Part shown: positions 4,511-55,917 of the stretch, in pieces
Layout: each line of letters opens with the position of its first letter
How positions within the stretch are numbered: the first letter of the stretch is position 1
Source of the DNA: Candidatus Omnitrophota bacterium
Lineage (GTDB): Bacteria > Omnitrophota > Gorgyraeia > JAFGHF01
NCBI GenBank assembly: GCA_042571705.1
Contig: JBHPFV010000004.1
Span: 7,167-71,166, forward strand
Length of the DNA stretch: 64,000 nt
Direction of reading: 5' to 3'
Made by a program: the position numbers and the translations under genes
The notes under the pieces: model-generated
Told to the model about the DNA's origin: nothing
The model's database searches: none
Seen by the model: only the letters and a program-made list of their open reading frames with translations

Positions 4511-4523
4511 AAGGAAAAATGAA

Positions 4524-4931: not shown

Positions 4932-4941
4932 GGGATTTAAA

Positions 4942-5574: not shown

Positions 5575-5605
5575 GTGTTAATGGGTTGTTTAGAAAGAGC
5601 GGGAC

Positions 5606-25221: not shown

Positions 25222-26162
25222 TGTCCCTCTTTAGCTCCGGACATTTGAGCCAAATCATCAGCAGAATAAATTACTAATTGCGGCTGACCGGTAAGCGTCA
25301 GTTTCCCGGTCCGGGTATCATAAACTGCCTTTTGGCTGTAGGTAGTATTCTCTCCGTGGTGAATCTGCACATCTCCCCAAGCTACTACCTTGTCGATGCC
25401 CACACCCTCCATGCCCGCGACTTGTTTGGCGGCATCAGCGGCAGAGTCTCCCGCGCCGAAATATACATCCATTTTATTAGAAAAGATCTCACCGCGCGCA
25501 TCCTGGACGTTAACATTGTCGTGAAAAATAGCCAAATTGTTTTGGTAATCTACATCTAAAGGGCCGTCGCAGGTAATCACTGTGCTGCTTGGCTGGCTGG
25601 CCTCCAAACCAGCAGACTCTTTTGCAAATGAGACTTCCACAGTCACGTCTTTTTTCAGGGCCACTTTCTGCAATTCCGGTTGCGCCATTAGGCCGACGCC
25701 CTTAGCCTGCATCACCCCTCTTTGAATCCAGACCGGGCTATCCGTGGCCATGGTCTGATTTTGGGCATTCCAATCCAGATAATCAGCGGTTAGCCTGGCG
25801 CCGTCATCGGAAGTAACTACGACATTCTTCTCCAGATGCACATTATTATCGGCCCGGTTTAAACTACCGGTCTCGGCCACAATATTCATATTGGTATCCT
25901 GACCATAAACTTTCGCTTTGACATTTTCTAATTTAATTTCCTGCGTCATAATATCGGCGCTGGTGCCTTCCAGGTCCCACTGGCGCATCCCGTTTTCCCC
26001 ATATCCGCTGACCGAAAAACTGGAAAGCATCTCATCCGGGGCCTCGGCTAAATCTTCTTGGTCGGTTTGATCTACCGGCTCAGCTTGATCTGCTTGGTCC
26101 GTCCCGGCGCAGCCCAGAGCCACAATGCTAATCAAGCAGAGAAATAGGAAAATTGGTCTCAC
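25218..26162 (-). CDS. OstA-fold protein occupying the lptC+lptA slot (putative LptC-LptA fusion lipoprotein)
   Basis: Signal plus LGC lipobox-like site, acidic DQ-rich linker, then two successive OstA-like beta-rich halves. It sits between kdsC and lptB. Confidence 0.55.
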   Translation of the reverse strand: MRPIFLFLCLISIVALGCAGTDQADQAEPVDQTDQEDLAEAPDEMLSSFSVSGYGENGMRQWDLEGTSADIMTQEIKLENVKAKVYGQDTNMNIVAETGSLNRADNNVHLEKNVVVTSDDGARLTADYLDWNAQNQTMATDSPVWIQRGVMQAKGVGLMAQPELQKVALKKDVTVEVSFAKESAGLEASQPSSTVITCDGPLDVDYQNNLAIFHDNVNVQDARGEIFSNKMDVYFGAGDSAADAAKQVAGMEGVGIDKVVAWGDVQIHHGENTTYSQKAVYDTRTGKLTLTGQPQLVIYSADDLAQMSGAKEGQ

Positions 26163-30419: not shown

Positions 30420-32141
30420 CTATTCTTCCTGCGTCACCCTGATTACTTCCGCAGGGGTGGTTAAACCGCTTTTTACCTTTCCCCAGCCATCCTGGCGCAG
30501 GGTGTGCATCCCGCTGGCAATGGCCTGCTTGCGGATTTCGCTGGCTGAGGCCCGATTAAGAATTAGCTCCCGGACTGGATCCTTCATCAGTAAAAACTCA
30601 TAAATACCGGTCCGGCCGCGGTAGCCGGTAAATTTACAAAATTCACAACCCCGGCCGGAAAAGAATTTCATTGTGGCTGAGTCTGCTTCGGGAGGAAGTT
30701 GCAATTCGCGCAAGACTTCAGGTTCAAGTTTTGTTTGCTGTTTGCATTTCGGACAAACCAGACGGACCAGCCGCTGGGCGACAAAACATTCTACCGAGGA
30801 AGAAATCAAATAGGGCTCAATTCCGATATCCAGCAGCCTGACTACCCCGCCGGCGGCATCAGAGGTATGCACGGTACTAAAAACCAAGTGGCCGGTCAAA
30901 GCCACCCGGATAGTAATTTCGGCTGTCTCGATGTCCCGGACCTCTCCAACCATCATTACGTCGGGATCGTGCCTGAGCATCGAACGTAACCCTTGAGCAA
31001 AACTTAAACCAATCAAAGGCTGGACCTGGATCTGGGTAATCCCGCGGATTTGATATTCAATCGGGTCTTCGATAGTGATAATCTTCTTTTTGGCGTCATT
31101 GATTTGGTTCAGGCAGGCATAAAGGGTGGTGGTCTTGCCGCTTCCGGTAGGTCCGGTAACAAAAATAATCCCGTTTGGATTTTTGATCAACTTTTCCAAG
31201 ATCTCTAAATCATTTTTTGAAATGCCTAAGTTCTCAAGATTATAAAGCATGCTCGGCACCAGAATCCGGATATCGATGCTTTCCCCGTAAGGAGTAGGCA
31301 GGATTGAAATCCGCAGGTCCAAATCCCGGTCTTCAAACCTGACCAGGATCCGTCCGTCTTGCGGCAGGCGTCTTTCGGCAATATCCAGATTAGACATGAT
31401 TTTAATCCGCGAGACAATACTGGAATGAAAATGTTTAATCTCCTCCGGGACATTAGCGTCATAAAGCACGCCGTCAACCCGATACCTGATCCGCAGCTGG
31501 TTCTCAAACGGCTCAATATGAATATCAGTGGCCCGATCAGTGACAGCCTGGTGAATGATTTGATTAACAAATTTGACTATCGAGGCATCCTCAGCCATGT
31601 CTGCTAAGTCTTCGACTCCGGCCTGATAAGTCGTCAACCCCTGCAGGCCTTCAGGCGCAGCCACCATTTTCTCTACCGTGTCCGCCCCCACGCCATAGTA
31701 TTTCCTGATGCTCTCTAAAATATCTTTTTCCGCAGCCAGGACTGGATTAATTTCTAAATCTAACAAAAGGCGTAAATCATCTAAGACCTGGATATTCATT
31801 GGATCGCTAACCGCAATAGTCAGGACCTGATCTTTCTTTTTTAAGGGGATTAATCTGTAGTGGCAGGCAAATTTCGCCGGGACTACTTTAATTACTTCGG
31901 GACTAACTTTAATCTCGCCTAACTTGACATAAGTAAAGCCTAATTGCTCCGAGAGCACAGGCAAAAGTTGTTCGTCTTTTATGAACCCCAACTTAGTGAT
32001 AATTGTGCCAATAAACCCGCCGGTTTTCTTTTGTTCCTGCAAGGCCAGGTCTAACTGATCAATAGTCAGCAATCCTTTATTGATCAACAACTCTCCCAGC
32101 AATGCATCTTTTCTGCTGCTATCTTCCATATTCGGGCTCAA
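30420..32141 (-). CDS. Type II/IV secretion ATPase (GspE/PilB/MshE family) with an N-terminal T2SSE_N/MshEN-type domain
   Basis: Walker A GPTGSGKTTTLYA, Asp/His boxes, tetracysteine CPKC...CEFC. The N-terminus is LLGELLINKGLLTIDQLDLALQEQ. Confidence 0.9.
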   Translation of the reverse strand: MSPNMEDSSRKDALLGELLINKGLLTIDQLDLALQEQKKTGGFIGTIITKLGFIKDEQLLPVLSEQLGFTYVKLGEIKVSPEVIKVVPAKFACHYRLIPLKKKDQVLTIAVSDPMNIQVLDDLRLLLDLEINPVLAAEKDILESIRKYYGVGADTVEKMVAAPEGLQGLTTYQAGVEDLADMAEDASIVKFVNQIIHQAVTDRATDIHIEPFENQLRIRYRVDGVLYDANVPEEIKHFHSSIVSRIKIMSNLDIAERRLPQDGRILVRFEDRDLDLRISILPTPYGESIDIRILVPSMLYNLENLGISKNDLEILEKLIKNPNGIIFVTGPTGSGKTTTLYACLNQINDAKKKIITIEDPIEYQIRGITQIQVQPLIGLSFAQGLRSMLRHDPDVMMVGEVRDIETAEITIRVALTGHLVFSTVHTSDAAGGVVRLLDIGIEPYLISSSVECFVAQRLVRLVCPKCKQQTKLEPEVLRELQLPPEADSATMKFFSGRGCEFCKFTGYRGRTGIYEFLLMKDPVRELILNRASASEIRKQAIASGMHTLRQDGWGKVKSGLTTPAEVIRVTQEE

Positions 32142-34096
32142 TTTCCAAATTCTACGCTTAAAATAAAGGTCTCCTGGTCCTGAAGATAGTCCTTGGGAAA
32201 AGGCGAAAACGGGGCCGCCCCGGAAACACTTTGCACAATTAAATCTTCTACTTCTTGATCTACAAAAGATAGAATCTCAGGCCGGCCTTGTAAAGAACCA
32301 TCGTAAGCCAGGACAAAACTTAATTCGGCTTCCTGGCGCTTGATTTGCCTGGGCGTGTTCTGCTGCAACTGTTGCTCAATCTCATCGGTCAAATAATCGC
32401 AATATTCCCGGAAATTGCCATAAAACCCAATCGGCTCAGCGGTAATTTTAGACAGCTCCAGGTCTAAGTCGGCTGACTCTAGCTCCGGCTCTAGCCAAAT
32501 CAATTGATCATCTTTTTTCGTATTTAGGGCCAGTTGATCCGGCTCTGCTTCAGCATCGACTCCGGTCTGTTGGTGATCATCTAAATAAGGAATCATCTCG
32601 CCCTCAAAATCATCGTCTTCTGAAATAATCGTGGGGGTGAGAAAAATTACTAATTCTATTTTCTCATCTTCCTGACCCCGGCTCTGAAAGACGTGACCGA
32701 TGATCGGGATATCGGCTAAGAAGGGCAGCCGTTCAGTATTATCTTTACGGGTATCCTTCATTAGCCCGGCCATAATAATAGTCGTGCCGTCTTTAACCAT
32801 TAGTTGGGTCTCGGCCTCAGAGGTGGTCACAATGGGCACGCTGGTGCGTACGCTACCGTCGGGATTGGTTAATTCCAAGGTGGTCGGGGCTGAGCTGACC
32901 TCCGGCTTAATCTTCATGGAGATGTAACCGTCGCGGCTAATTGTCGGGGTCACCGCCAGACTTACTCCGACATTGACAAATTCGACATTGTCGGCGGTAG
33001 TAGTGGTGCCGTCGGTCTGAGTAACGGTCGAGGTCACATAGGCCTCTCTGGTTCCGATCAATACTTTTGCCTCTTCGTTGTTAGAGACTACAATTCTAGG
33101 CGTGGAAAGCACATTGGCCTTACCCAACGTATCCAAAAGACGTAAGATTACTTGGTCGCCATATTCAGTCGCCCCATGAGCCCGGGTATATGTAAAAGTA
33201 GTGTCTTCGGTCACACCGGCTAGATTAATCGAAAGGTCGGACCGGGCGATTGTATCAATGCCGGCAAAGACATTATTCCAGTTAACCCCGTAACCAAGAT
33301 CTTTATTTAAAGTAAGCTGAATGATCTTGGCCTCAATCAGCACGACCATGTCCTTCTCATCAAAATCATCGATCACCCTGGAGATATACTCAATCCTTTC
33401 CGGCAGATCGGTAATAATTAGTTTGTTCATCCGCTCATCAACTTTAACCTGACCTAAATTTTTAGTCAATGACTCACTTATCTTTTCCGCGACATCTTTG
33501 GCCTGGGCAAAGTTTAGCGTAAAGGTCTCGGTAGTGGTGGCTAAATCCATGCTTTTGACTGCCGCTTCCATCTGTTTAATTTTATCAGGCACATCCATCA
33601 GCACCAGCGTATTGGAGCTCTGATCAACAATAACTTTGCCGATTTTGCTTTTGATTTGATTAAGCGCTTTACTCACCTCCACGGCTTTGGCAAATTCCAG
33701 CCGAATGATTTTCGCTATTTTCTTATCATAACTTTTCTCACCATACAAAAGCTCATAATCTCTTTCGCTCATCACATTGATAATCTCACCCTGCTTTTCA
33801 TAGGCTAAGTCATTGGCGGCTAAAATAATCTCTAAGGCATCGATCACTTCTACATTTTTAAGAAACAGGGTTACTTTGCCGCGGACGTTCTTGCCGGCCA
33901 CTATATTAAGATTTCCGCGCATGGCTAAGATTTTTAGCACATCAACAATATCCATCCCCTTCATATCCAGAGAGACCTTTCCCGCCGAGACGCTGGAGCT
34001 CTGGGCATCGGCAACTTGACTCTCCGGCTGAGCCGATAAAATCGCAGGGATAATTAATAAGCAGGTTAAAAGATAGATCGTGACCGGCTTTTTCAT
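32138..34096 (-). CDS. Secretin (GspD/PilQ/MshL family) with a 160-aa C-terminal extension
   Basis: Signal peptide, N0-like domain (DIVDVLKILA...NIV...V), secretin core (VLSTPRIVVSNNEEAKVLIG...IELVIFLTPTII), then an acidic linker and a TonB-C/TolA-like tail. Confidence 0.9.
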   Translation of the reverse strand: MKKPVTIYLLTCLLIIPAILSAQPESQVADAQSSSVSAGKVSLDMKGMDIVDVLKILAMRGNLNIVAGKNVRGKVTLFLKNVEVIDALEIILAANDLAYEKQGEIINVMSERDYELLYGEKSYDKKIAKIIRLEFAKAVEVSKALNQIKSKIGKVIVDQSSNTLVLMDVPDKIKQMEAAVKSMDLATTTETFTLNFAQAKDVAEKISESLTKNLGQVKVDERMNKLIITDLPERIEYISRVIDDFDEKDMVVLIEAKIIQLTLNKDLGYGVNWNNVFAGIDTIARSDLSINLAGVTEDTTFTYTRAHGATEYGDQVILRLLDTLGKANVLSTPRIVVSNNEEAKVLIGTREAYVTSTVTQTDGTTTTADNVEFVNVGVSLAVTPTISRDGYISMKIKPEVSSAPTTLELTNPDGSVRTSVPIVTTSEAETQLMVKDGTTIIMAGLMKDTRKDNTERLPFLADIPIIGHVFQSRGQEDEKIELVIFLTPTIISEDDDFEGEMIPYLDDHQQTGVDAEAEPDQLALNTKKDDQLIWLEPELESADLDLELSKITAEPIGFYGNFREYCDYLTDEIEQQLQQNTPRQIKRQEAELSFVLAYDGSLQGRPEILSFVDQEVEDLIVQSVSGAAPFSPFPKDYLQDQETFILSVEFGN

Positions 34097-34136
34097 CTTT
34101 TTCGCTCCCTTAATTTTAGCCTACGTTTTTTTGCTT

Positions 34137-34700
34137 TTATAACGCTAACTCCGCTTCTTGCCCGTGATAATTTAACTTAACTTTTCCCGGAAGGATTTCT
34201 GTCAATTCAATCTCGCCGATATATCCGCCTGGAGAAAGAAAATGAACTTTTTTTGTCCGCGTATCTTCAATCACCGCTTGTGGTTCTGGTCCGGAAATAA
34301 TCCCTTGTAGCTTCAATTGGGAAACTATTTCAGTAAACGTTGCCGAAGGCGCAAGCGCTGCTGTTGTCGGGCCGGAATCTGCGAACAGGCCTTTTGCCTT
34401 TATCGGCTCCAGATAATAAGCTAGTGGCTTGGCCGTTTCAACTTCAGGGGATAACTGTCGCGGCAAGCTCAACGCCTGCGGAGTAAACTGAACCGGTCTT
34501 TGCGGCCGAGCGCTGAGCAAATCGAAGATGAAATATGCCGCTAACAGCGCTAAGACCGGCAACAGGATCGGGAAAAACCTTTGCTCTGGATCGCGCTTAG
34601 TCAGTTTAGGTTGAGCAATCTGATTTTTCTGAGCTGTTTTTTTAGCTGGTTTACGAATCAGGCGCAACAGCCGTTCTTCCGGGCTAATATTGTCCTGCAT
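34137..34700 (-). CDS. Bitopic inner-membrane protein, GspC/PilP-like (putative secretin-coupling component)
   Basis: One TM segment (FFPILLPVLALLAAYFIFDLL). The C-terminus LKLQGIISGPEPQAVIED..TKKVHFLSPGGYIGEIELTEILPGKVKL resembles the GspC-HR/PilP beta-sandwich pattern. Position is immediately upstream of the secretin. Confidence 0.35.
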   Translation of the reverse strand: MQDNISPEERLLRLIRKPAKKTAQKNQIAQPKLTKRDPEQRFFPILLPVLALLAAYFIFDLLSARPQRPVQFTPQALSLPRQLSPEVETAKPLAYYLEPIKAKGLFADSGPTTAALAPSATFTEIVSQLKLQGIISGPEPQAVIEDTRTKKVHFLSPGGYIGEIELTEILPGKVKLNYHGQEAELAL

Positions 34701-34703
34701 CTT

Positions 34704-35531
34704 TTATCCTATTCCTACCTTAACTTCATCTTCAATTAACGACTGGATCAAATCGGTATCAACTATCTCCCGGCCGCTCATTACACAGGCCTCCAGGGCG
34801 TTATGGCACAAAATGGAAATCCGGCGCGGGTACCCTTGAGTCTGCTCAAAAATTAACTTGATCGCCTCTTCAGTGAACAGGCTGCCCGCGGAATCAAGTC
34901 CGGCCTGTTGCAGCCGAAACAGGATCATCTCTTTGGTTTCCTGCTGATCCAGCGGATTGATAATATATTTTAGACTGACCCGGTCTAAAAAGTTCTTAAT
35001 CTTTTTAAGCCGCGGCAAGATTTCCATCTGGGCGACAATGACTAATTGTAAAAGTTTATACTCATTGGTTTCGTAATTTAGCAAAATCCGCAAAATCTCC
35101 AAAAAATCGGGGGTCAGCTTCTGGCCTTCATCGATCAGTAAGACGATGGTCTTATTTTCTTCTACTCCCTGTTTGAATAAAAATTTCTCCAAGGCCTCTT
35201 TATAGTCTAACGTCGAACGGAAGTTGGGTTTAGTGTCCATCATCCGGGTCAGCGCCGCTAAGAATTGAAATTCAGATTTGTAAGAGGGGTCTAAAATCAT
35301 GTAAAACCGGAAGTCCTCCTCGTCATGAAAGTTCTGCAGCAGGGTCCGGCTTAATGTCGTCTTGCCGGTACCCACGTCACCTAAAATCAGGCTCAAGCCC
35401 CTTCTTAATCTAATCGCGATTTCCAATCTTTGCAGGGCCGTATTGTGAGCAAAAGAGCGATAAAAAAAAGCCGGATCAGGGCTTGTAGAAAAAGGCTCTT
35501 TGGTTAAATTAAGCTGGTTAAAATAACTCAT
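34704..35531 (-). CDS. ExeA/GspA/MshM-like AAA ATPase
   Basis: LTKEPFSTSPDPAFFYRS..H..AL..L...I....G...ILGDVGTGKTTL, LLIDEGQ. Confidence 0.85.
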   Translation of the reverse strand: MSYFNQLNLTKEPFSTSPDPAFFYRSFAHNTALQRLEIAIRLRRGLSLILGDVGTGKTTLSRTLLQNFHDEEDFRFYMILDPSYKSEFQFLAALTRMMDTKPNFRSTLDYKEALEKFLFKQGVEENKTIVLLIDEGQKLTPDFLEILRILLNYETNEYKLLQLVIVAQMEILPRLKKIKNFLDRVSLKYIINPLDQQETKEMILFRLQQAGLDSAGSLFTEEAIKLIFEQTQGYPRRISILCHNALEACVMSGREIVDTDLIQSLIEDEVKVGIG

Positions 35532-35761
35532 CAGTCCAAACGCTCCTTGATTTCCCTGATTGGACGATTTAGTTTACGTAATTGGCGGATGCGCAGTAAC
35601 CTTTCTAACGTACTTGAATTAAAATAACGAAACCGTGTTTCCGGACAGCGTCCGACCTCTTTAATTAAAGCAATTTTCAAATAGTACTTAATCGTATGCA
35701 CAGACTGTCCGGAGAGCCGGGCCAGATCTTTGACTAGATAAATATCTCTCATCTTGAACAC
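35531..35761 (-). CDS. Small MerR-type helix-turn-helix DNA-binding protein (no effector domain)
   Basis: YLVKDLARLSGQSVHTIKYYLKIALI...RFRYFNSSTLERLLRIRQLR. 76 aa, with a 1-nt overlap with the ExeA-like gene. Confidence 0.7.
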   Translation of the reverse strand: MFKMRDIYLVKDLARLSGQSVHTIKYYLKIALIKEVGRCPETRFRYFNSSTLERLLRIRQLRKLNRPIREIKERLD

Positions 35762-35764
35762 TCC

Positions 35765-35782
35765 ACTCTCTACCTAGAGAGT
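35765..35782. promoter_or_regulatory. Perfect 8+8 palindrome ACTCTCTA-CC-TAGAGAGT abutting the -10 element (candidate operator or 5' stem-loop)
   Basis: Read directly from the sequence. It lies between the -10 hexamer (35783-35788) and the SD GGAG of the HTH gene. Confidence 0.4.
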
Positions 35783-35811
35783 AGTTTAACACTAAAACAT
35801 AATGTTGTCAA
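35783..35811 (-). promoter_or_regulatory. Internal sigma70-type promoter (TTGACA-17 nt-TAAACT) ahead of the HTH-exeA-gspC-secretin-ATPase genes
   Basis: Minus-strand read: -35 at 35806-35811, -10 at 35783-35788, in the only sizeable gap (119 nt) of the pilus cluster. Confidence 0.55.
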
Positions 35812-35880
35812 CTATTTTATTATAAATTTACTTAGACTTACTTATGCTTTTAGATAGCTGGGGATTGAAAAAGGCTAGGG

Positions 35881-36417
35881 TTACTGGCTGGCTAAAATTT
35901 TGCTAATAATTAGGCGGGCTTTAAGCTGGGGGCTGGAGCTCTTTGCAGCCGTGATCCTTAAATTCTCTACCCTGATTAATTGTTCGGACTGCTGCAAGGT
36001 ATAAATAAACTTGATGTAGCCTTCCATGGTGGCTTGGCAATTCATCTCTAAAATGTATTTCTTACAAAACACCAAATCTTTGATCGGCTTGGGTCTGATG
36101 TTGGAGATATGGAGGGTTGAGTCTTTGGCCGTTTTTTCCACAAAGCGTAACAACGCGGTTACCTCTTCTTCGTCCACTCCCCCTTTCTGAATAACACCGG
36201 CCAGCTGACGATAGATATCCCTGACCTGCTCTTTTTGGCTAATGTATCTGATGTTGCTTTTCAGCTCTATTTCCTGTTCAAGAATTTGGCGATTGAGCTC
36301 TTGCCAGTTCGCGGCCAGCGGTCTGACAATAAAACTATAAACCACGGTCAAGCTAATCACCGCCAGCGTCAGCTGGATCAGCCGCCTTTCTCTTTGGGAA
36401 AGATTCGCAAAAAACAA
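35881..36417 (-). CDS. PilO/GspM-like bitopic pilus-assembly protein
   Basis: N-terminal TM (LIQLTLAVISLTVVYSFIV), a coiled-coil, and a ferredoxin-like C-terminus. Position is after the PilM-N gene. Confidence 0.5.
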   Translation of the reverse strand: MFFANLSQRERRLIQLTLAVISLTVVYSFIVRPLAANWQELNRQILEQEIELKSNIRYISQKEQVRDIYRQLAGVIQKGGVDEEEVTALLRFVEKTAKDSTLHISNIRPKPIKDLVFCKKYILEMNCQATMEGYIKFIYTLQQSEQLIRVENLRITAAKSSSPQLKARLIISKILASQ

Positions 36418-36428
36418 TTAGCGCTCCT

Positions 36429-37868
36429 CTATTTTTCCAGACTGCATAATATCTTAAAGTTAATCGCACCCAACGCCTTGGCCTTTTTCTCACTGACGTA
36501 CTTCAACTCAACGCTCTTAAAGTAGTCTGACTTCTCCAGAGTGTTCACAAACTGAAAGATTAGCGACATCTCTTCGGATGAACCTTCCAGAGTCAGCTGG
36601 GCCTTTTCTTCAGCGTAATCAAATACGGAAAAGGCAATCTGCTCCGGGGTGAGTAGATGCAGTTGACGCAAAATATCCACGCTGGAGCCGCTAATTTTCC
36701 GGCGTCGCTGAATCAGTTCAATATTTTTGATCATGTTCTTGATCTCGTTGGCGGCGGGGCTGGTGCTGGTAATCTCTCTTTTTAAGTAAGTTAAACGTTT
36801 CTGCTTGTCGCTAAACTGCTTAATCATAATTAGCGCACCCAATAAGAAAATGGCCGCTGAGATACTTAAGAACCTGGCGATTGTTTTCTTTCTCAATCGC
36901 AATGATTGTTTCTCGCGCAAGGGCGCAGGCAAAAGATTCAGCCGCTTGCCGTCAGTCTTAAGGACTAATCCAAGAATTCTAGCTAATGAAGACTCGGACT
37001 GATATTGGGCGGCGAAGACATCTTTCTGATAATTAAGTTTTTTAAACGGTGAAATTGTTTCGCCGATTAACGTAAACTCCTGCTTTAACAACTCGGTTAA
37101 TTCATCGGCGACCTGGAAAGATTGGGCAAAAATAAACCTTTCTATCTTTCGAGTCTGTTCATACCTTTGATAGCCCTCAATAGTCCGGCGGAATTCCTGG
37201 AGTAATTTGTCTTTTACTGATCCGCCTTTACGCAATTGGTTGATGCCAAAAGTTAATCCCCGCGTAAAATCTAAACAACGGTTATGAAAAATTACAATAT
37301 CAGTGTCATCTTCATTTAAATCAATCAAAGCCAGGCTCCCGCTAATCTGTTCCTGCTTAAATACCAGCCGATACCAGCTTAAAATCGACTCGCTGCTGAA
37401 GGTAATCCTGGCCGGCTCAAGATTAAGTTTTTTGAAGATATCTAAATAACGATTCAGGACATGCTTTTGCACAATCACTAAAGCAACTTTGGAATAGCCA
37501 TCGGGGCTCTGTTCGGTAATTAGGTGGTCACTAACGATCTCGTCTTTGTGAAAGGGCAGTTCCCTGGCCGACTGTAAAGCGACCATATTGGCCACCTCTT
37601 TTTCATTTACTGAGGGAAAGCGCAAGAAACGCACGGTCACTTTATGCCGGGGGATGCAGAAAGTCAAGTGGCCGACTCGGCCTTTAATTTCGCTGACTAT
37701 ATCTCGCAAGGCGGCAGTGATGTTCTCTTGCGTATCGGCTGGCATGCGCTTGAGGATTAGCTTAGTAATTCTTCTTGAGCCCGGATGGTCTTGGGCCTGC
37801 ACAAACTTAACCAAGCCCGGCTCAATCTCCAACCCTGAATATAGTTGCTTAGTTTTCAGAGGACTCAT
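36429..37868 (-). CDS. PilM-PilN fusion (actin-like ATPase-fold PilM/MshI + TM + PilN-like domain)
   Basis: The N-terminal ~320 aa are PilM-like (GLEIEPGLVKFVQA...). A TM segment IARFLSISAAIFLLGALIMI follows, then a ~130-aa PilN-like domain. Confidence 0.7.
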   Translation of the reverse strand: MSPLKTKQLYSGLEIEPGLVKFVQAQDHPGSRRITKLILKRMPADTQENITAALRDIVSEIKGRVGHLTFCIPRHKVTVRFLRFPSVNEKEVANMVALQSARELPFHKDEIVSDHLITEQSPDGYSKVALVIVQKHVLNRYLDIFKKLNLEPARITFSSESILSWYRLVFKQEQISGSLALIDLNEDDTDIVIFHNRCLDFTRGLTFGINQLRKGGSVKDKLLQEFRRTIEGYQRYEQTRKIERFIFAQSFQVADELTELLKQEFTLIGETISPFKKLNYQKDVFAAQYQSESSLARILGLVLKTDGKRLNLLPAPLREKQSLRLRKKTIARFLSISAAIFLLGALIMIKQFSDKQKRLTYLKREITSTSPAANEIKNMIKNIELIQRRRKISGSSVDILRQLHLLTPEQIAFSVFDYAEEKAQLTLEGSSEEMSLIFQFVNTLEKSDYFKSVELKYVSEKKAKALGAINFKILCSLEK

Positions 37869-37871
37869 CGG

Positions 37872-38933
37872 CTAACCTTTCACTATAACCGTTTCCGTTT
37901 TGAGTAGCTGTTCGGCTGCCTGAGACACTGCATCAACAGAAACCGCTGCCAAACAGGCAAAGCCTTTGTGGCAATTGTGCGCTTGGCACGGCTGACAACC
38001 TAGGTCGCGATGTAGGATTAGATCGCTTTTTCCCGTTGGGCCCCAGCGACGGGGACTGAGGCCTGGTTGGCGGCGGCCAAAGATGCTGACTACCGGCACC
38101 CCTAACGCGGCGGCGATATGCACCGGCCCGCTGTCGTTGGAAATAAACAGCGCGCACCTGCTCAACAGACTGGCTAATTGGCTCACTGAAGTCCGGCCGC
38201 TAAAGTCAAAACATTCAGCCCGAATTAGGCCAGCTAGCTTTTTACCGATCTCAACATCATTAGGTCCGGCGACAATAACCGGTTTTACTTTAAATTGCTC
38301 CACTAAGCGATTGGTCACTTGGGCAAACCTCTCGGTTGACCAAACTTTAGATGGACAGCTGGCGCCCGGATGAAAGGCCACCAGCTTCTGGTTGCTCTCC
38401 AGGCCAAAATTTTCCAGTAACCGCTGAATATACTCCTCGCTGTCTTTTCTCACCGGCATAAACAGATCTGTTCCAGAGGCCTGAACCCCCAGCCTGCGGA
38501 TAAAATCCAGCGCATATTGCGTTTCATGTCTTTGGCCTTTTTGTTTTTCATGTTCAACCTTGTCGGTGAGCAAGAAATCAAGATTCCGCCGATAGCCCAC
38601 TCTGCTTTTTATCCCGGCTAAAAAGGTGACTAAATGCGCCCGGTTGGTAGGATGTAACACTAAAGCCAGGTCAAACTTTTTGCGCCTTAAGCCCTGAGCA
38701 AAGATTAAACTTCGCCAGAGGCTCTTCTGGCGGCCATACTTATCATAAATAATCACTTCATCTAAATAGGGATTTCCTAAGACTATGTCTTCGGCATAGG
38801 GCCTGACCATCATCGCGATATAGCTTTTAGGGAAATTTTTTCGCAAGGCCTTAATCACCGGCGTGGAAAGCAAGACATCGCCGATGCGATCGGTGCGGAC
38901 AATTAATATTTTTTGAAATTTTTTTGCGCTCAT
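37872..38933 (-). CDS. Glycosyltransferase family 9 (LPS heptosyltransferase family)
   Basis: KILIVRTDRIGDVLLSTPVIKALRKNFP, NDSGPVHIAAALGVP. I prefer ATG 38933 (ATGA coupling to the upstream stop) over the track start at 38951. Confidence 0.85.
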   Translation of the reverse strand: MSAKKFQKILIVRTDRIGDVLLSTPVIKALRKNFPKSYIAMMVRPYAEDIVLGNPYLDEVIIYDKYGRQKSLWRSLIFAQGLRRKKFDLALVLHPTNRAHLVTFLAGIKSRVGYRRNLDFLLTDKVEHEKQKGQRHETQYALDFIRRLGVQASGTDLFMPVRKDSEEYIQRLLENFGLESNQKLVAFHPGASCPSKVWSTERFAQVTNRLVEQFKVKPVIVAGPNDVEIGKKLAGLIRAECFDFSGRTSVSQLASLLSRCALFISNDSGPVHIAAALGVPVVSIFGRRQPGLSPRRWGPTGKSDLILHRDLGCQPCQAHNCHKGFACLAAVSVDAVSQAAEQLLKTETVIVKG

Positions 38934-39904
38934 CCTAATATCTTCTGGCAAGCCGCGAAAACCTGATCAACATTAATTAGCTTCATGCAATCACGCGTCC
39001 CCTTAAAGCAGAGAGATTTTCCACAAGGGGCGCAATCTAAAATTTTGCGGATCACCACGTCCTTTGGTCCCCGGGGTCCATATTTTCTATCGTCGGTCGG
39101 CCCAAATATAGAAACCACCGGTGTGCCTACAGCCCAAGCCAGATGCATCGGGGCGGAATCATTAGAAATCAACAGCTTGCATTTTGTCAACAGGTAAGCC
39201 AGCTCGCCAATCTCGGTTCGGCCGCAGGCGTTAATCGGCTGAGGCCTAATTGAGCTGATGATTTCTTCTACCAAAGGCCGGTCGTCTGAATCACCAACGT
39301 TAATAATCCGGGCATTATAGCTGCCCTTTAATTTTTCAATCAATTGAGCATAGGCCTGTTTTTCCCAACGCTTGGTCTTATTGCGGGCACCCGGGGCTAA
39401 GGCGATTAAGACTTGATTATTTTTAACCTGCCATTTTTTAAGCAATTTACTTACGTTCAGCTGCTCTTCTGCCCCAAGCTCAACTGATGGCCCTTGTGTA
39501 TTATCCACGGTCAAGCCGAGTGAACTTACCTTCCAGAGATGCCTGTCTTTCATATGCAATAAAGATTTCGGAGGCTTCAAGATAACTGAGGTCCGGTAGC
39601 GTGACCCCAGTAAGATGCTGAAGAAAGACTCGCGTAAATCAACGACTAGATCGTAGTTATCATGCCTGAGCCGATTGGTCAGGGCCAACTTATTCTTCCA
39701 GGTAATTGACTTATCGTAAATAATCTTTTGATTGATCCGCCGGTCAGATTTGAACACACCGAAGGCCCGCGGTCCAACTAAAACAGCCAGATGGGCATGA
39801 GGAAAGTTATCTCTTAACGATTGCACAACCGGCGTAGTTAATACCGCGTCCCCGATATTGCTCAAATTCACTATCAGGATCCTGCTGATTTTGCTTTTAT
39901 CCAT
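38930..39904 (-). CDS. Glycosyltransferase family 9 (heptosyltransferase family)
   Basis: RILIVNLSNIGDAVLTTPVVQSLRDNFP, NDSAPMHLAWAVGTP. Confidence 0.85.
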   Translation of the reverse strand: MDKSKISRILIVNLSNIGDAVLTTPVVQSLRDNFPHAHLAVLVGPRAFGVFKSDRRINQKIIYDKSITWKNKLALTNRLRHDNYDLVVDLRESFFSILLGSRYRTSVILKPPKSLLHMKDRHLWKVSSLGLTVDNTQGPSVELGAEEQLNVSKLLKKWQVKNNQVLIALAPGARNKTKRWEKQAYAQLIEKLKGSYNARIINVGDSDDRPLVEEIISSIRPQPINACGRTEIGELAYLLTKCKLLISNDSAPMHLAWAVGTPVVSIFGPTDDRKYGPRGPKDVVIRKILDCAPCGKSLCFKGTRDCMKLINVDQVFAACQKILG

Positions 39905-40919
39905 TTACAGTCACCTTTTCTACTGCCTGCAGGACATCATCGACTGAAATTTCCCGCAGGCATTGTTTCCGGTCGCAATCAGGCTGATAACAAGGAATCC
40001 GGCAGCCGATATCTTTCTGGATCACAGTATAGTTACCTTTTCCGTAAGGTCCGGTAATCTTAGCTGAGGTCGGACCAAACAGCGCAATTACTTTAGCTCC
40101 TTGACTAACGGCAATATGCATCGGCCCGGAATCATTAGCGATCACCAGTTTTACTTGGGACATTAAAGCAGCCAGTTGGCCCAATGTGGTTTGGCCAGAT
40201 AAAACAACTGCCTCGCCCTTAAGCTGCCCGGCAATATCTTCCGCTAACTTCAGATCGGAGTCGGCTCCGGTAATAATAATCTTAGCCTGATGCTTCTCGA
40301 TTAACCGATCAGCCAGGTGAATAAAGTATTCCTCAGGCCAGCGCTTCGGCGCCCAATTGCCTCCGGGATTGATAATTACCGAGAAGTCGTTGCTATTGAT
40401 TCCTTTTTGCGCTAAAAGCCTCTGCACATAATCCTGATCTTCCCGGCTAAAATAAAATTCATAGCTTTTATCTTCGGCATCAATAGCCAAGCTTGAGGCA
40501 ATGTTTAAAAAATAATCTACCTTATGCAGATCAGGCCTGGGGACCGGGATGCTTTTGGTCAGCAACAGCGACCGTTTCCTTGTATAATAACCAATTCTCT
40601 GCGGAATTCCGGCCAGCCAGCAAATAAATGCCCTGGTAGTAGAACGATGTAAAAGAAAGGCCGTATCAAAGCTCTTGGACTTCAACGCCTTGACTAATTC
40701 CAGCTTACCCCTTAAACCGCTGTGCTGGCCCTCTTCGTCAAATATGATAATTTCATTCAGGTGGGGATTGAGCTCCAAAAGCGCAGCGCAGCGCGGAACT
40801 ACCAGCGTGGCAATGTAACTATCCGGAAACTTCTTTCTCAGCGCGCGGATAAACGGGGTAGTAAACAACACATCCCCGCGCCAGTTAACATTCACTATTA
40901 GGATGCGTTTGATTTCCAT
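39897..40919 (-). CDS. Glycosyltransferase family 9 (heptosyltransferase family)
   Basis: RILIVNVNWRGDVLFTTPFIRALRKKFP, NDSGPMHIAVSQGAK. Confidence 0.85.
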   Translation of the reverse strand: MEIKRILIVNVNWRGDVLFTTPFIRALRKKFPDSYIATLVVPRCAALLELNPHLNEIIIFDEEGQHSGLRGKLELVKALKSKSFDTAFLLHRSTTRAFICWLAGIPQRIGYYTRKRSLLLTKSIPVPRPDLHKVDYFLNIASSLAIDAEDKSYEFYFSREDQDYVQRLLAQKGINSNDFSVIINPGGNWAPKRWPEEYFIHLADRLIEKHQAKIIITGADSDLKLAEDIAGQLKGEAVVLSGQTTLGQLAALMSQVKLVIANDSGPMHIAVSQGAKVIALFGPTSAKITGPYGKGNYTVIQKDIGCRIPCYQPDCDRKQCLREISVDDVLQAVEKVTVNG

Positions 40920-41711: not shown

Positions 41712-42826
41712 CTTTTCGCCTTGACACTGAGGACCTGGGCGTAAACACGCTCAATGCCGTCCACCATTTGTTTCAAACCAAACTGACCAAGCATTTGTCT
41801 TCTGCCCTGCCCGCCAAAGGCAATGGCTTTGTTTCTATCTTTGAGTAAACCGACAATGGCCTCGGCTAATCTTTGCGAGTTTCCCGGCCGGACCAAAAGA
41901 CCGTTAACCCCCTCTTTGACCACAGTATAAATACCTCCTACGTCGGAAGCGACCACCGGAAGACCCATCGCCTGAGCCTCAATAATAGCCAAGCCCAACC
42001 CCTCCATCAATGAAGGAAAAACAAATATATCCATAATCGACAAAGGCACGGAAGTATCCAGAGTGGAAGGGCTGAAAAAAATATTATTTGCCAGGCCCAA
42101 TTCCTGGACCTGAGTCAGCAGTCTCTGTTTTTCCGGACCATCTCCCACTAACAGTAGCTGGACCTCAGGACATGCCTTGATTACCTCCCTCATCGCGAAG
42201 ATCAGATAGCGCTGTCCCTTGACAGAAGAGAGTCTGGCCACTGTGCCGATTATCGGCGCTTCGCTTTTGAGGCCGTAATCTCTTTTAAGTTGTTGTTTCT
42301 GTTTTTGGCTAAATTTTTGCGGAGAAAATCGTTCTGCCTCGACGCCATTATGAACCACGGAAATATCTTCTTTTTTCACGGACAGATCATTAACTAGATG
42401 CTCTCTGACCGCCTCACTAATCGCCACACAGTGATCCCCCCAACACGGAAACACCTTTCTCAACAATCGGGGCTTAAAGAACCCGTGACAAGTACTGACA
42501 TAAGGTATATTTGCTACTTTTGCGGCTAAATGCGCCAGGACCTGCGTGACTCTGGTGTGGGCATGAATTATCTCAATCTCATTTTCTTTGATGATCCGCA
42601 CCAGCCTTGACGCGGCCGGATAAAGTTTCGGGTTTAACGCCGATTTAGTCTTGATATTTAAGTTAAAATGGCGCACGCCACAAGATGAAAGTGGAGCCAC
42701 CAAATCTCCGCCGCTGGAAACTACAAACAACTGATGGCCTTTTCGAACCAGGACTTTAGCCAAAGAGAGCACATAGACCCCAATTCCCCCGAGATTCAAA
42801 TGCGTGGTTAACAGCAGTATTTTCAT
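41708..42826 (-). CDS. Glycosyltransferase family 4 (GT-B, retaining type)
   Basis: MKILLLTTHLNLGGIGVYV, FPSLMEGLGLAIIEAQAMGLPVVASDVGG. Confidence 0.85.
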   Translation of the reverse strand: MKILLLTTHLNLGGIGVYVLSLAKVLVRKGHQLFVVSSGGDLVAPLSSCGVRHFNLNIKTKSALNPKLYPAASRLVRIIKENEIEIIHAHTRVTQVLAHLAAKVANIPYVSTCHGFFKPRLLRKVFPCWGDHCVAISEAVREHLVNDLSVKKEDISVVHNGVEAERFSPQKFSQKQKQQLKRDYGLKSEAPIIGTVARLSSVKGQRYLIFAMREVIKACPEVQLLLVGDGPEKQRLLTQVQELGLANNIFFSPSTLDTSVPLSIMDIFVFPSLMEGLGLAIIEAQAMGLPVVASDVGGIYTVVKEGVNGLLVRPGNSQRLAEAIVGLLKDRNKAIAFGGQGRRQMLGQFGLKQMVDGIERVYAQVLSVKAKR

Positions 42827-44901
42827 CTTAAGAGTGCCTTGACTGCTTCAAATACTTCCTCTACTGAAATTTCTTTCATGCATTTATGTTGCTGACAATT
42901 GCGCTTATAGCAAGGACTGCAAGAGACATCTTTTCTAATCACAGCCTGGTTATTACTGCTTAAGGTATGCCGGCGCGGGTCGGTGGGCCCAAATAAAGCC
43001 ACCACCGGAGTCTGCATCGCGTAGGCAACATGTAAGGGGGCGCTGTCACCGGTGATATAGACATCGCAGCGTTTAATTAAGCTGGCTAACTGCAAAATTT
43101 CCGTCTGACCTACTGCGTTAATAAAGTTTCCCGAGGCAAGTGCAGCAAGCTTTTCGGCTAAGTATTGTTGCTGCCCCTTACCGGTAATAACTACCTGCAT
43201 CCCCGATTGCCGCAGTCTGTTTATAAGCTCGGCAAAATTTTCAATCGGCCAGTTCTTTGATCCCCACTCGGGAGAGGCCTGAAGATTCAAGCCGACCAGG
43301 GGTAAGGTTTTGTCTTTCTGCTGCGACTTTAAGAAATCCTCAGCCCAAATCCGATCTTTTTCCTCAGGCCACAATTCCAAATCTTGGCTGACAGTCTCAA
43401 TGCCGAGAAGTCTTAAAGTGCGGGCCTGGTGCTCTACAGGTGAAATGGCCGCTTTTGCCTCTTTTGCTTTATGATTTAAAAGAAAACTCAATTTGCCATT
43501 ATTATAGCCGTATCTTCTGTTGCCCGCGCTCAAATAGGCTAATAAATGGCTTTTGCGGTTATTTTGTAAGTCCACTACAATATTAAAGTCGGCTCGGCGC
43601 AACCCTTTAGTAATCTGCCAGAGTTCGCTAACCTTAAGCTTCTCGGAAGGAAATTCAAGAATATGGTTGATGTAGGGACAATTTTGTAAAATGGGCTTAA
43701 AATCCCGGGCAACCAAAACCGAGATTTCAGCATGAGGAAACCTTTCGCGTAAAGCCCGTAAAGAAGGAATGGCTAAGATTACATCTCCTAAGGCGCTTAT
43801 TTTAAGCACTAAGATCCTTAAGCTGCCTTGCACTTCCTCATAGACAGCAATGGTTTTTTCGGCCATTTTCCTCAAGCTAAACTGCTGTTCCACCTTTTTT
43901 CGGCCTTGGAGGATAATTTTTTCTGTTAATTTGGGCTGCTCAAAGATATTGAGCATCGCCCGGGCCAGATCGTCAGAATCACCGGGAGCAACCAAAATAC
44001 CATTTGTGCCGTCCTCAATAATATCAACCACCCCGCCGACTTTAGTGGCAATTACCGGTATGCCGCTGGCTCCGGCTTCAATTAGTACCCGGCCAAATGC
44101 TTCCTGGGTAACCGTAGGCAAAACTAAGAGATCAAGCTGTTTGTAGACCTGGGCCACATCATTAACCCGGCCGGAAAATTCGACATATTTATCTAAGCTC
44201 AGTCTCCTGACCAGCATCTTCAGTTCTTCTTTATAATTTTCTTTACCATCTCCAACAATTAAGCCTTTGACCCGCGGTAAGGTGCGCGCTACCCGAGCTA
44301 AAGCCTCTAAAAAATACTTATGCCCTTTAATCGGGCTCAGCCTTCCAACTACTCCAATAATAAAGGCCTGATGCTTACGCTGAGTGATTGGCGCCTTTGG
44401 GATCAGCTTAAAGCTAGCCAAATCTACCCCGCGGGGGATTAGTTTGATTCGCTCAGGAGGAACGTCAAAATCCTCAACCATATGGCGGGCAATTGCGCTG
44501 CTGGACACAATCACCCGTTTCCCCCAACCCATTACCCGGCTAAAAAATCCTTGATTGTAGTAGCCATGGGCAGTGGTCACAAAATTTACTCCTGTTTGCC
44601 TGCAGGCTAAGAAGGCGATTAGCCCCGGTACCCGCGAGCGGGCATGGACGATATCAATCTTTTCTTCATGCAAAATTTTGACCAGCTGAGGCACACAAGC
44701 CAAAATAGTAAATAAAGACTTCTTGTGTACCGGAAGATTAAAATGTTTGGCGCCGAGCTGCTCTAAATCTTTGACCAGGCCCCCGCCATTGGAAACCACA
44801 AAGGCTTGATGATTACGCCGGATCAACTCACCGGCCAAATCAACCGTGCCCCGTTCCACTCCACCGATATTCAATTCCGGCAAAATTTGCAGAATCTTCA
44901 T
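42823..44901 (-). CDS. Two-domain glycosyltransferase: N-terminal GT4 fused to C-terminal GT9 (heptosyltransferase-like)
   Basis: GT4 half (about 43831-44901): MKILQILPELNIGGVERGT...EAFGRVLIEAGASGIPVIATKVGG. GT9 half (about 42823-43830): LRILVLKISALGDVILAIPSLRALRERFP...GDSAPLHVAYAMQTP. Confidence 0.85.
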   Translation of the reverse strand: MKILQILPELNIGGVERGTVDLAGELIRRNHQAFVVSNGGGLVKDLEQLGAKHFNLPVHKKSLFTILACVPQLVKILHEEKIDIVHARSRVPGLIAFLACRQTGVNFVTTAHGYYNQGFFSRVMGWGKRVIVSSSAIARHMVEDFDVPPERIKLIPRGVDLASFKLIPKAPITQRKHQAFIIGVVGRLSPIKGHKYFLEALARVARTLPRVKGLIVGDGKENYKEELKMLVRRLSLDKYVEFSGRVNDVAQVYKQLDLLVLPTVTQEAFGRVLIEAGASGIPVIATKVGGVVDIIEDGTNGILVAPGDSDDLARAMLNIFEQPKLTEKIILQGRKKVEQQFSLRKMAEKTIAVYEEVQGSLRILVLKISALGDVILAIPSLRALRERFPHAEISVLVARDFKPILQNCPYINHILEFPSEKLKVSELWQITKGLRRADFNIVVDLQNNRKSHLLAYLSAGNRRYGYNNGKLSFLLNHKAKEAKAAISPVEHQARTLRLLGIETVSQDLELWPEEKDRIWAEDFLKSQQKDKTLPLVGLNLQASPEWGSKNWPIENFAELINRLRQSGMQVVITGKGQQQYLAEKLAALASGNFINAVGQTEILQLASLIKRCDVYITGDSAPLHVAYAMQTPVVALFGPTDPRRHTLSSNNQAVIRKDVSCSPCYKRNCQQHKCMKEISVEEVFEAVKALLR

Positions 44902-44905
44902 CTGG

Positions 44906-55900: not shown

Positions 55901-55917
55901 CGCTTACCTCCCGCTTT

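Follow-up and report, generated by a model that had tools for sequence, protein, structure and literature searches.

Here, we present an analysis of a cluster of seven genes resembling those of type IV filament machines in a 64,000-nt stretch of DNA from a Candidatus Omnitrophota bacterium (the window), in which every open reading frame (ORF) of at least 100 aa was scanned with Pfam. The cluster occupies positions 30420-37868 on the minus strand and encodes, in the order of transcription, a PilM-PilN fusion (PilMN), a PilO-like protein, a MerR-like protein, an AAA_22 ATPase, a GspC-like protein, a secretin, and a T2SSE ATPase; a 119-bp gap between the PilO-like and merR genes is its sole real intergenic space. 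The genes, their order, their strand and coordinates, and their lipopolysaccharide (LPS) gene flanks are as described in an initial annotation of this stretch. That annotation also recognized an envelope-spanning machine of the T2SS (type II secretion system) or T4P (type IV pilus) type, and Pfam bears this out for the secretin, the T2SSE ATPase, PilMN, and the PilO-like protein. Equally, the AAA protein belongs to the ExeA/MshM family (TIGR03015, E=2e-50) and the traffic ATPase carries an MshEN domain (Pfam, 2.4e-19), as had been suggested.

In what follows, E to K denote GspE to GspK, L the PilM/N fusion, M the PilO/GspM protein, R the MerR-like protein, A the ExeA/MshM-like ATPase, C the GspC-like protein, and D the secretin. 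In these terms, the segment probably corresponds to one half (L-M-R-A-C-D-E) of a divergent type IV filament system, T2SS-like in character and conserved in Candidatus Omnitrophota. Judged from its sequences, the system is a T2SS-like mosaic within the type IV filament superfamily, since G, F, H, J, K, and C are Gsp-like, while L, the secretin, and the ATPase look nearer to the type IVa pilus (T4aP). Apart from its conserved built-in regulator module, it is largely ordinary.

The operon in related genomes

We collected 48 non-redundant related loci; a PilMN-profile scan of genome contigs gave only seven loci, all of them from Omnitrophota, and the genome of the window is not among the GTDB representatives matched in it. 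The system is conserved across Candidatus Omnitrophota, with the seven genes, including the MerR-like gene, in the same order. The genes E-F-G-H-I-J-K-L-M-R-A-C-D are contiguous in five loci (L014, L023, L026, L028, and L030) and F-G-H-I-J-K-L-M-R-A-C-D in L031; in L018 the ATPase gene comes last (F-G-H-I-J-K-L-M-R-A-C-D-E), and in L004 the run is F-H-I-J-K-L-M-R-A-C-D-E. GspF is present and adjacent in all of these loci and also in L101 and L102, and the PilMN gene of relatives lies directly 3' of the GspK gene. The G protein of the relatives passes the GspG equivalog cut-off (TIGR01710, 117.1 versus 88.85), F scores best on GspF (363.8 versus 291 on PilC), J on gspJ, K on T2SS_GspK, and H on XpsH/GspH; I also scores best on Gsp models. 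The initial annotation had described a machine without a platform protein or pilin; because the orthologous clusters have GspF and a bona fide GspG adjacent, the window is better described as holding half of an operon that has been split. What seemed paradoxical, a filament machine lacking a platform or pilin, is thereby resolved as half of a complete, split-prone system, and this calls for caution with cluster-based classifiers applied to fragmented metagenome-assembled genomes (MAGs).

Independent breaks at K|L occur in L005, L009, L019, and L020. In L005 and L009 the genes upstream of L are unrelated, and in L005 F-I-J are found downstream, beyond genes for Wzy_C and a TPR protein. In L102, F directly precedes L with no G-K block, and in genome CP070837.1 F-H-I lie ~0.9 Mb from J..E. 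In L101, genes for a family 4 glycosyltransferase (GT4), a deacetylase, and three family 9 glycosyltransferases (GT9c, GT9b, and GT9a) stand in the order of the window and are followed by F-G-H-I-J-K and then by a gene for a cohesin/Ig protein; the shared GT4-deacetylase-GT9 proteins are 58-64% identical to those of the window, and the three GT9 proteins 62-64%. Because L101 has this GT9 block followed by F-K, while the window has it followed by L-M-R-A-C-D-E, the simplest reading would be that an ancestor had the whole operon 3' of the GT9 genes and that each lineage kept a different half there.

Two of the breaks have features of their own. An AbiEii/AbiEi-type toxin-antitoxin pair sits exactly at K|L in L019 (351-1795) and L020 (1661-3100). 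In CP070837.1, which is designated complete, the split falls between I and J (L002/L010 6900-8100, L016; 0.128 Mb and 1.026 Mb) and the junction has runs of N, so that it is either a real rearrangement or a mis-scaffold; contig L004, which is 86-90% identical, is contiguous.

Within the window, the platform protein and the major pilin are indeed absent, as first stated: no T2SSF/PilC match was found among the scanned ORFs, and a six-frame motif scan for class III signal peptides found only those at 4524-4931 and 4942-5574 and no GspG. The 4 kb beyond the window start contain genes for a response regulator, RimP, NusA, and IF-2 and no filament genes. All seven ORFs of the cluster are intact with their catalytic motifs kept, and the seven proteins are identical in a compared copy from another assembly (L001). 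The exact proteins of the window were also found in the Candidatus Omnitrophota MAG GCA_042569555.1, and the PilMN protein carries two accessions and is thus present in two assemblies. Since the seven genes, PilD, and two prepilins are intact and the cluster proteins are identical in L001, we consider it likely that F and G exist elsewhere in the genome of this species.

Other parts had been described as dispersed over the window (Table 1). This holds for the pilD and PilZ genes at 55535-56700, while the link of the proteins at 1676-8476 is tentative, the similarity being weak. The 135-aa prepilin and the protein at the GspI position of L005 share 23% identity in a pairwise alignment over the whole length of the former (E=7e-06), the 210-aa prepilin matches the J profile through its N-terminal helix alone (27 bits), and the two ~950-aa paralogs have weak N-terminal similarity to GspK-position proteins; Pfam at E<=1 gave nothing meaningful for these two. 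Their assignment to this system, like that of the prepilins, is a tentative one. The ~950-aa paralogs flank the two prepilin genes, and the GspK-position proteins of relatives have just 281-384 aa. Recent work describes T2SS/T4P genes adjoining giant proteins (bioRxiv 10.64898/2026.06.07.730766).

Table 1. Features of the window, with positions, strands, and main matches
Feature	Position	Strand	Size, matches, and remarks
PilM-PilN fusion	36429-37868	-	479 aa; Pfam PilM_2 1.2e-12, PilN 2e-09
T2SSM/PilO-like (GspM-like) bitopic inner-membrane protein	35881-36417	-	178 aa; Pfam T2SSM 3e-07, PilO 1.6e-04
Internal promoter and operator-like palindrome	35765-35811	-	Between PilO-like and merR genes
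MerR-type helix-turn-helix (HTH) protein	35531-35761	-	73-76 aa (ATG at 35752); Pfam MerR_1 3e-12
ExeA/GspA/MshM-family AAA+ ATPase	34704-35531	-	275 aa; Pfam AAA_22 2.2e-18; TIGR03015
GspC-like bitopic protein	34137-34700	-	187 aa; weak Pfam T2SSC match
Secretin	32138-34096	-	652 aa; Pfam STN, Secretin_N (two), Secretin
PilB/GspE/MshE-type assembly ATPase	30420-32141	-	573 aa; Pfam T2SSE 2.3e-127, MshEN 2.4e-19
Three GT9 (heptosyltransferase-family) genes	37872-40919	-	Pfam Glyco_transf_9; immediately upstream of PilMN
Protein with PilX_N/GspK-like N-terminal helix and large unknown domain	1676-4510	+	944 aa
Prepilin-type protein	4524-4931	+	135 aa; Pfam N_methyl; candidate minor pseudopilin, tentatively GspI-like
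Prepilin-type protein	4942-5574	+	210 aa; Pfam N_methyl; candidate minor pseudopilin, tentatively GspJ-like
Paralog of the 944-aa protein	5606-8476	+	956 aa; 42% identity between the two
Single-domain PilZ protein adjoining pilD	55535-55900	-	Pfam PilZ 4.8e-15
Prepilin peptidase PilD/GspO	55918-56700	-	Pfam A24_N_bact 4.5e-37, Peptidase_A24 5e-20

The MerR-like gene, its promoter, and the ExeA-GspC pair

The M-R gap contains a promoter with a -35 element TTGACA (35811-35806), a 17-nt spacer, and a -10 element TAAACT (35788-35783), which is directly abutted by a perfect palindrome, ACTCTCTAggTAGAGAGT (35782-35765). The same unit, a sigma-70 promoter of the form TTGAC(A)-17-TAnAnT with the -10 element abutting TACTCTCT-N4-AGAGAGTA, precedes merR in 30 of the 35 loci with a MerR ortholog; two of the remaining five are cut by contig ends, and a third, L015, has a variant caught by a different pattern. 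The palindrome is a single site in the 64-kb window, where no further copies that could point to a regulon were found at <=2 mismatches; there is one per related locus, and none at the operon start of these loci. Tandem copies or extra half-sites occur in L014, L015, L024, L025, L035, and L084.

The MerR-like protein consists of the winged-HTH region alone, without an effector or coiled-coil domain, and its PDB matches (BmrR, SkgA, MtaN, CadR, and GlnR [7TEA]) cover only N-terminal DNA-binding domains. BldC is another short MerR-family DNA-binding protein without an effector domain. The stop of merR overlaps the start of exeA by 1 nt. This DNA-binding protein had been taken for an inserted oddity; rather, it is a conserved core member of the cluster, in the same order across relatives and with its own operator-like palindrome. 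We considered and rejected a classical MerR activator, on the grounds that the protein is HTH only, the spacer has 17 nt and not 19-20 bp, and the palindrome lies downstream of the -10 element. With a spacer of ordinary length (17 nt) and transcription expected to start within the palindrome, the latter is probably a repressor-type operator by which the MerR-like protein would negatively autoregulate R-A-C-D(-E). The promoter-palindrome unit upstream of merR appears to be new, and the papers searched contain no description of an association of a MerR-like protein or this palindrome with a secretin operon.

The ExeA-like ATPase is the most conserved protein of the cluster (61-79% identity among relatives). 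Its best NCBIfam match is the ExeA/MshM-type PEP-CTERM ATPase model TIGR03015 (171.7 bits, under the cut-off), and it has a Walker A (GDVGTGKT) and a Walker B motif (LLIDEGQ). It has no transmembrane (TM) helix or hydrophobic segment and no PG_binding match, the AAA_22 region being the only one found. The GspC-like protein is composed of an N-terminal cytoplasmic peptide, NISPEERLLRLI, a TM helix near residues 42-62, a linker, and a C-terminal homology region (HR) domain. A profile of 10 orthologs matched in PDB the GspC HR domain 3OSS_C, crystallized with GspD (E=4.5e-05), as well as OutC in the 6HCG T2SS complex and two other GspC entries; the profile gave no PilP match, and the protein has no lipobox.

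An N-terminal peptide of the (S/T)PEEKLLRLI type is present in 42 of 42 distinct C proteins with an adjacent ExeA (33 by the strict pattern, the rest as close variants, e.g., SAEEKLLKLI and TPEEKLFAVI) and missing in both clusters without ExeA (L011 and L012). The A-C-D adjacency is found in every locus that keeps A, with the ORFs overlapping or abutting. The tie between this cytoplasmic peptide and the presence of the ExeA-like ATPase appears to be new, and the peptide is not described in the papers searched. The cytoplasmic ATPase domain of ExeA is needed for the complex with ExeB to form (PMC4098917, PMC9239104), and GspB/OutB bears a GspC-like HR domain (PMC9239104). By analogy, we speculate that A docks on the N-terminal peptide of C and that the HR domain of C engages the N0 domain of the secretin. 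Little is understood of what MshM/ExeA-type ATPases do in type IV filament machines, and the co-occurrence offers a concrete, testable interaction.

R-A-C-D or A-C-D stands alone on long contigs in L021, L037, L041, L042, and L044, which supports that these genes form a self-contained secretin sub-operon or functional unit. In Omnitrophota the module is widespread, both within T2SS-like operons and by itself. We tentatively suggest, while leaning toward doubt, that R-A-C-D is an autonomous, self-regulated module for the installation of the secretin, comprising a mini-repressor with its TACTCTCT-N4-AGAGAGTA operator, an ATPase, an adaptor with a docking peptide, and the secretin. If so, it could represent a new way in which secretin assembly is gated and energized from the cytoplasmic side, with neither a pilotin nor a GspA that binds peptidoglycan, and the half-cluster of the window could work with a platform and pilin set encoded elsewhere.

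A (MerR)-ExeA-GspC-like-secretin module is also solitary in L050, L057, and L063. No other type IV filament genes were detected within 10 kb of the solitary modules, and L041 has two tandem secretin genes. Other environmental clusters (L064-L083) likewise have ExeA-like genes, at 45-50% identity, placed between those for a PilQ-type secretin and for PilB/PilC, arguing that the ExeA-like ATPase family is a recurrent type IV filament accessory. In these clusters (e.g., L068 5195-18974), the genes encode PilM-like, (PilO), PilQ-type secretin, ExeA-like, PilB, PilC, and pilin proteins in an MSHA-like order (MSHA, mannose-sensitive hemagglutinin); the ExeA-like proteins are long (500-560 aa), and the secretins pass the PilQ cut-off and are not of the MshL type.

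Parts, surroundings, and rival readings

In PilMN, a TM helix near residues 331-352 lies between a cytoplasmic, actin-like PilM domain and a PilN domain in the periplasm; an ortholog profile matched Myxococcus xanthus PilM (5.6e-20) and also PilN in PDB. The PilO-like protein matches NCBIfam GspM_XpsM at 1.7e-09, under the cut-off. The secretin has a signal peptide, an STN/N0 domain, two Secretin_N domains, and the secretin core, followed by an acidic C-terminal extension of ~158 aa. It scores 257.6 on PilQ (cut-off 284.35), 244.1 on GspD (cut-off 351), and 171.6 on MshL (TIGR02519; cut-off 250.2), and its best PDB matches are PilQ of Neisseria and Pseudomonas, with GspD next. The extension (32138-32614) has a weak match to TonB_2, the TonB C-terminal domain (E=0.0077); an acidic extension is common to the secretins of L012, L018, L019, L020, and L102 (623-649 aa) and missing in those of L002, L004, and L005 (502-531 aa).

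The traffic ATPase has a Walker A motif and a zinc site CxxC...CxxC (CPKC...CEFC). It scores 593.5 on GspE, just under the cut-off of 630, and 582.9 on PilB (cut-off 675.65); in PDB, PilB aligns end to end with 488 bits and GspE gives 386 bits. Two tandem 24-residue MshEN motifs, as defined for c-di-GMP binding (PMC5013675), are located at residues 14-37 (LLGELLINKGLLTIDQLDLALQEQ) and 43-66 (FIGTIITKLGFIKDEQLLPVLSEQ) with a 5-residue spacer. Position 7 of motif 2 is Thr instead of L/V/I, while the remaining conserved positions match save the initial Arg. The pattern is kept in the ATPase orthologs, and the c-di-GMP motif model NF053729 is passed (55.3 versus a cut-off of 38), making control of the traffic ATPase by c-di-GMP plausible. 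The start of the ATPase gene is likely the ATG at 32129, the longer N-terminus being backed by orthologs; the NCBI gene call (555 aa) opens inside MshEN motif 1 (window 32087-32141).

As described initially, the cluster is tightly packed within LPS genes, with 3 bp between the last GT9 gene and the start of PilMN on one side and Kds/Lpt genes on the other. Beyond the GT9 genes upstream are genes for a polysaccharide deacetylase, a GT4, a GT4-GT9 fusion, LpxK, and WaaA, and downstream are those for a PfkB/HldE-type kinase, KdsB, KdsA, KdsD, KdsC, LptC/A, and LptB. The GT9 genes are probably co-transcribed with the PilMN and PilO genes. The co-inheritance with LPS genes proposed on this basis holds only narrowly: the GT9-T2SS junction is shared with L101, but the remaining 20 loci whose upstream flank spans at least 3 kb lack it. 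Genes for heptose, 3-deoxy-D-manno-octulosonic acid (Kdo), and Lpt functions are adjacent in none of the 21 loci with a downstream flank; in L037, LptC/A and LptB are ~9.5 kb from the cluster. Envelope-glycan genes lie near the cluster in some relatives (Wzy_C in L005; GT4 and WecA-like in L009; GT2 and LpxL in L002), with no conserved partner. The LPS adjacency is a feature of a sub-lineage and not a property of the system.

Four features of the surrounding minus-strand genes are recorded here in their own right. A 314-aa ORF directly upstream of LptB (25218-26162) has fused LptC and LptA/LptD_N-like domains. Two fusion enzymes are encoded in the LPS block at 42823-47056, one of GT4 and GT9 (692 aa) and one of LpxK and a Mito_fiss_Elm1-type domain (716 aa). 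The trigger factor (23471-24469) has just 332 aa, with Trigger_N and Trigger_C and no PPIase/FKBP match between them. The ORFs for a XerC-type recombinase (49992-50987) and topoisomerase I (50842-52842) overlap by 146 nt, and the recombinase start is probably mis-set in the mechanical ORF listing.

Several observations weigh against the segment being half of a T2SS-like system with the regulation and contacts proposed above. PilMN has a GspL/MshI-type architecture, yet its sequence matches are PilM plus PilN and not T2SSL models; the secretin scores slightly higher on PilQ than on GspD; the traffic ATPase carries a long PilB/MshE-type N-terminus, and the initial Arg is missing from both of its MshEN motifs; and no protein of the window reaches an NCBIfam equivalog cut-off. 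GspF, GspG, and GspH were not located for this genome, so that the system could be incomplete here: among the ortholog-clade matches of a four-protein Omnitrophota GspF profile and of an L018 GspF query, none traced to its two assemblies, and the ortholog-clade NCBI matches belong to other assemblies (GCA_020341815.1, GCA_974502255.1, and GCA_964536195.1). The A-C contact is putative, and so is recognition of the palindrome by the MerR-like protein; the palindrome variants are partly G-U-compatible, which makes an RNA role possible. Finally, Seymour et al. report T4aP in nearly all Omnitrophota, and T4aP is the TXSScan label that their study gives to Omnitrophota clusters (PMC10066038). This label also favors a T4aP machine, i.e., a genuine pilus on the surface, by which cells would attach to host or prey and of which the ~950-aa PilX_N-like proteins (1676-8476) would be the tip adhesins, as do the PilM and PilN matches, PilQ as the best secretin match, PilB with its MshEN N-terminus as the best full-length PDB match, a PilM/N-O-(P-like)-Q order equal to pilMNOPQ, and the giant tip-type proteins beside two prepilins. 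Nevertheless, we regard such a machine as unlikely: the major subunit of the relatives passes the GspG cut-off, and Gsp models give the best scores for their F, H, J, and K; the HR protein is bitopic and matches GspC and not PilP; F-G-H-I-J-K-L-M is the Gsp order; no PilT was found in the window or in any related locus examined; and the secretin and the ATPase stay below the cut-offs for PilQ and PilB. An MSHA-type pilus, encoded by a rearranged msh operon with MshM as the ExeA homolog and MshE as the ATPase, is highly improbable. It draws on the presence of an ExeA/MshM-family ATPase in a short form without a peptidoglycan-binding domain (mshM is among the mandatory genes of the TXSScan MSH model; PMC6668835), on the tandem MshEN motifs, and on the resemblance of the PilM-PilN fusion to MshI. 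However, the MshL score of the secretin is not only under its cut-off but also under the PilQ and GspD scores, there is no MshN-type TPR protein, the relatives have the Gsp order with GspG-, J-, and K-type pseudopilins, the window has no pilin or platform gene, and the ExeA-like genes in L-D-A-E-F-G order (L064-L083) go with PilQ-type and not MshL-type secretins. We therefore rejected the MSHA affinity of the initial annotation on the MshL score and the gene order.

Three further possibilities concern the state of the cluster, its surroundings, and its palindrome. The half-cluster could be an orphan remnant, non-functional or decaying after the loss of F-K, in line with the lack of a GspF or GspG ortholog attributable to the two assemblies of this genome while those of relatives were found. 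This is improbable given the seven intact ORFs with preserved catalytic motifs, their identity in L001, the intact promoter and operator-like palindrome, and the retention of PilD, two prepilins, and PilZ; moreover, incompleteness is inherent to MAGs, and relatives often have split clusters. Alternatively, the LPS adjacency could be functional, with a single envelope-biogenesis unit co-expressing the genes for outer-membrane glycolipid synthesis and those of the secretin half, as might be suggested by the 3 bp between GT9 and PilMN, the same GT4, deacetylase, and three GT9 genes abutting T2SS genes in L101 at ~60% protein identity, and other envelope-glycan genes in L005, L009, and L002. We find this quite unlikely: GT9 genes are adjacent in one of 21 upstream-flanked loci and heptose/Kdo/Lpt genes in none of 21 downstream-flanked loci, the L101 genes joined to GT9 are those of the other half (F-K), R-A-C-D-E has its own conserved promoter, and tight packing is the default in compact genomes with almost no intergenic space. 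The palindrome, for its part, could act as an RNA hairpin (an mRNA stabilizer, a processing site, or a protein-binding element) in a transcript from PilMN to the secretin; one-sided variants are mostly of the T-to-G type and keep G-U pairing (L013, L015, L020, L023, L024, L036, and L084), and those in L025 and L039 are compensatory. Against this, the sequence itself is nearly invariant, beyond what pairing alone would require; the palindrome is always locked to the -10 element, so that a transcript from this promoter would begin within or after its left arm; A:C mismatches occur in L005, L035, and L102; tandem copies and extra half-sites exist; no known RNA family was found anywhere in the window at Rfam gathering thresholds; and the neighboring gene encodes a DNA-binding domain. 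An RNA role thus seems unlikely.

Proposed mechanism and relation to known systems

In our model for the half of a T2SS-like system, the operon would have broken at K|L in this lineage, with L-E staying 3' of the three GT9 LPS genes and the F-K block now being elsewhere or unassembled. PilMN and PilO may be transcribed by read-through from the GT9 genes, while the conserved internal sigma-70 promoter would drive the merR, exeA, gspC, secretin, and ATPase genes. The MerR-like protein most likely binds the palindromic operator over the start site, and secretin production would in this way be under negative autoregulation. We speculate that the PEEKLLRLI peptide of the bitopic GspC-like protein is the docking site of the soluble ExeA-like ATPase and that the periplasmic HR domain of the GspC-like protein would contact the N0 domain of the secretin; A and C would then constitute a GspA/GspB-plus-GspC-like assembly and coupling unit without a peptidoglycan-binding domain. 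The traffic ATPase, probably responsive to c-di-GMP via MshEN, would power a GspG endopilus on GspF, and this endopilus would push large surface or secreted proteins through the secretin.

We favor secretion over a surface pilus on account of the GspG-, GspC-, and GspK-type parts, the lack of PilT in the sampled DNA, and the neighboring large cohesin/dockerin/Ig/PKD/BNR genes; a pilus function here has a small probability, which derives especially from the two ~950-aa proteins flanking the prepilins. Large secreted-type proteins are encoded beside the clusters in L101 (9653-11497), L102 (18879-21206), L005 (6170-8095), L013 (38-1273), and L020 (448-1554), with cohesin, dockerin/pectate-lyase-like, Big/PKD/cadherin, BNR/LTD, fn3, and Ig domains. 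They are suggestive as candidate substrates, and these adhesin-like or enzyme-like neighbors may indicate what the system exports. The mosaic T2SS/T4aP-like system, whose secretin sub-operon comes with a deeply conserved promoter-operator and a mini-MerR of its own, belongs to the Omnitrophota, which are uncultured and ultra-small and may live as predators or parasites. We consider the conserved MerR-operator unit and the ExeA-peptide coupling the parts most worth following.

Compared with the T2SS (Gsp/Pul/Eps/Xcp), the relatives share the order E-F-G-H-I-J-K-L-M plus a secretin, a pseudopilin above the GspG cut-off, and Gsp-type F, H, J, and K; common to the T2SS and the window are a bitopic GspC-type HR protein, a GspM-like protein, a zinc-binding GspE-type ATPase, a prepilin peptidase, and a secretin with N0/N1-type domains. 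In contrast to the T2SS, L is PilM plus PilN by sequence, the ATPase N-terminus is of the PilB/MshE type with MshEN, the secretin is nearer to PilQ and has a C-terminal extension, and the GspC-like protein has no PDZ or coiled-coil domain; C and D are at the operon end, behind an internal promoter, a MerR-like gene, and a gene for a short ExeA-like ATPase, and the operon is split, with F-K outside the window. The T4aP (pilMNOPQ/pilBC) provides the best matches for several parts (PilM, PilN, PilO, PilQ, and PilB) and the order M/N-O-(P-like)-Q-B. However, PilM and PilN are fused here, the HR protein is TM-anchored and GspC-like instead of a PilP lipoprotein, neither AMIN domains nor PilT were seen, and the major subunit of the relatives is GspG-type. 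With MSHA of Vibrio (mshI-J-K-L-M-N-E-G-F), the cluster shares a PilM/N fusion, a short MshM-type ATPase, and an MshEN ATPase, but its secretin is not MshL-type, MshN is lacking, the order differs, a MerR-like gene is present, and the pseudopilins of the relatives are Gsp-type.

As to the regulator, classical MerR activators have their operator between the -35 and -10 elements, whereas here the palindrome is 3' of a promoter with a normal spacing of 17 nt. The short repressors of the GlnR/TnrA type are, like the protein described here, MerR-family members without an effector domain; in this system, the protein is encoded next to a conserved palindrome. The closest parallel to the A-C pair is GspA/GspB (ExeA/ExeB; Aeromonas, Vibrio, and Dickeya): in both, a gene for an ExeA-family ATPase is followed by genes for a small bitopic protein and then a secretin, and the bitopic partner has the kind of periplasmic domain by which N0 of the secretin is bound. 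Unlike the ATPase of GspA/GspB, which has a TM segment and a periplasmic peptidoglycan-binding domain, that described here is soluble, has 275 aa, and has neither. Moreover, its partner appears to be the sole GspC-like protein of the system, and we suggest that the roles of GspB and GspC may be merged in this one protein.

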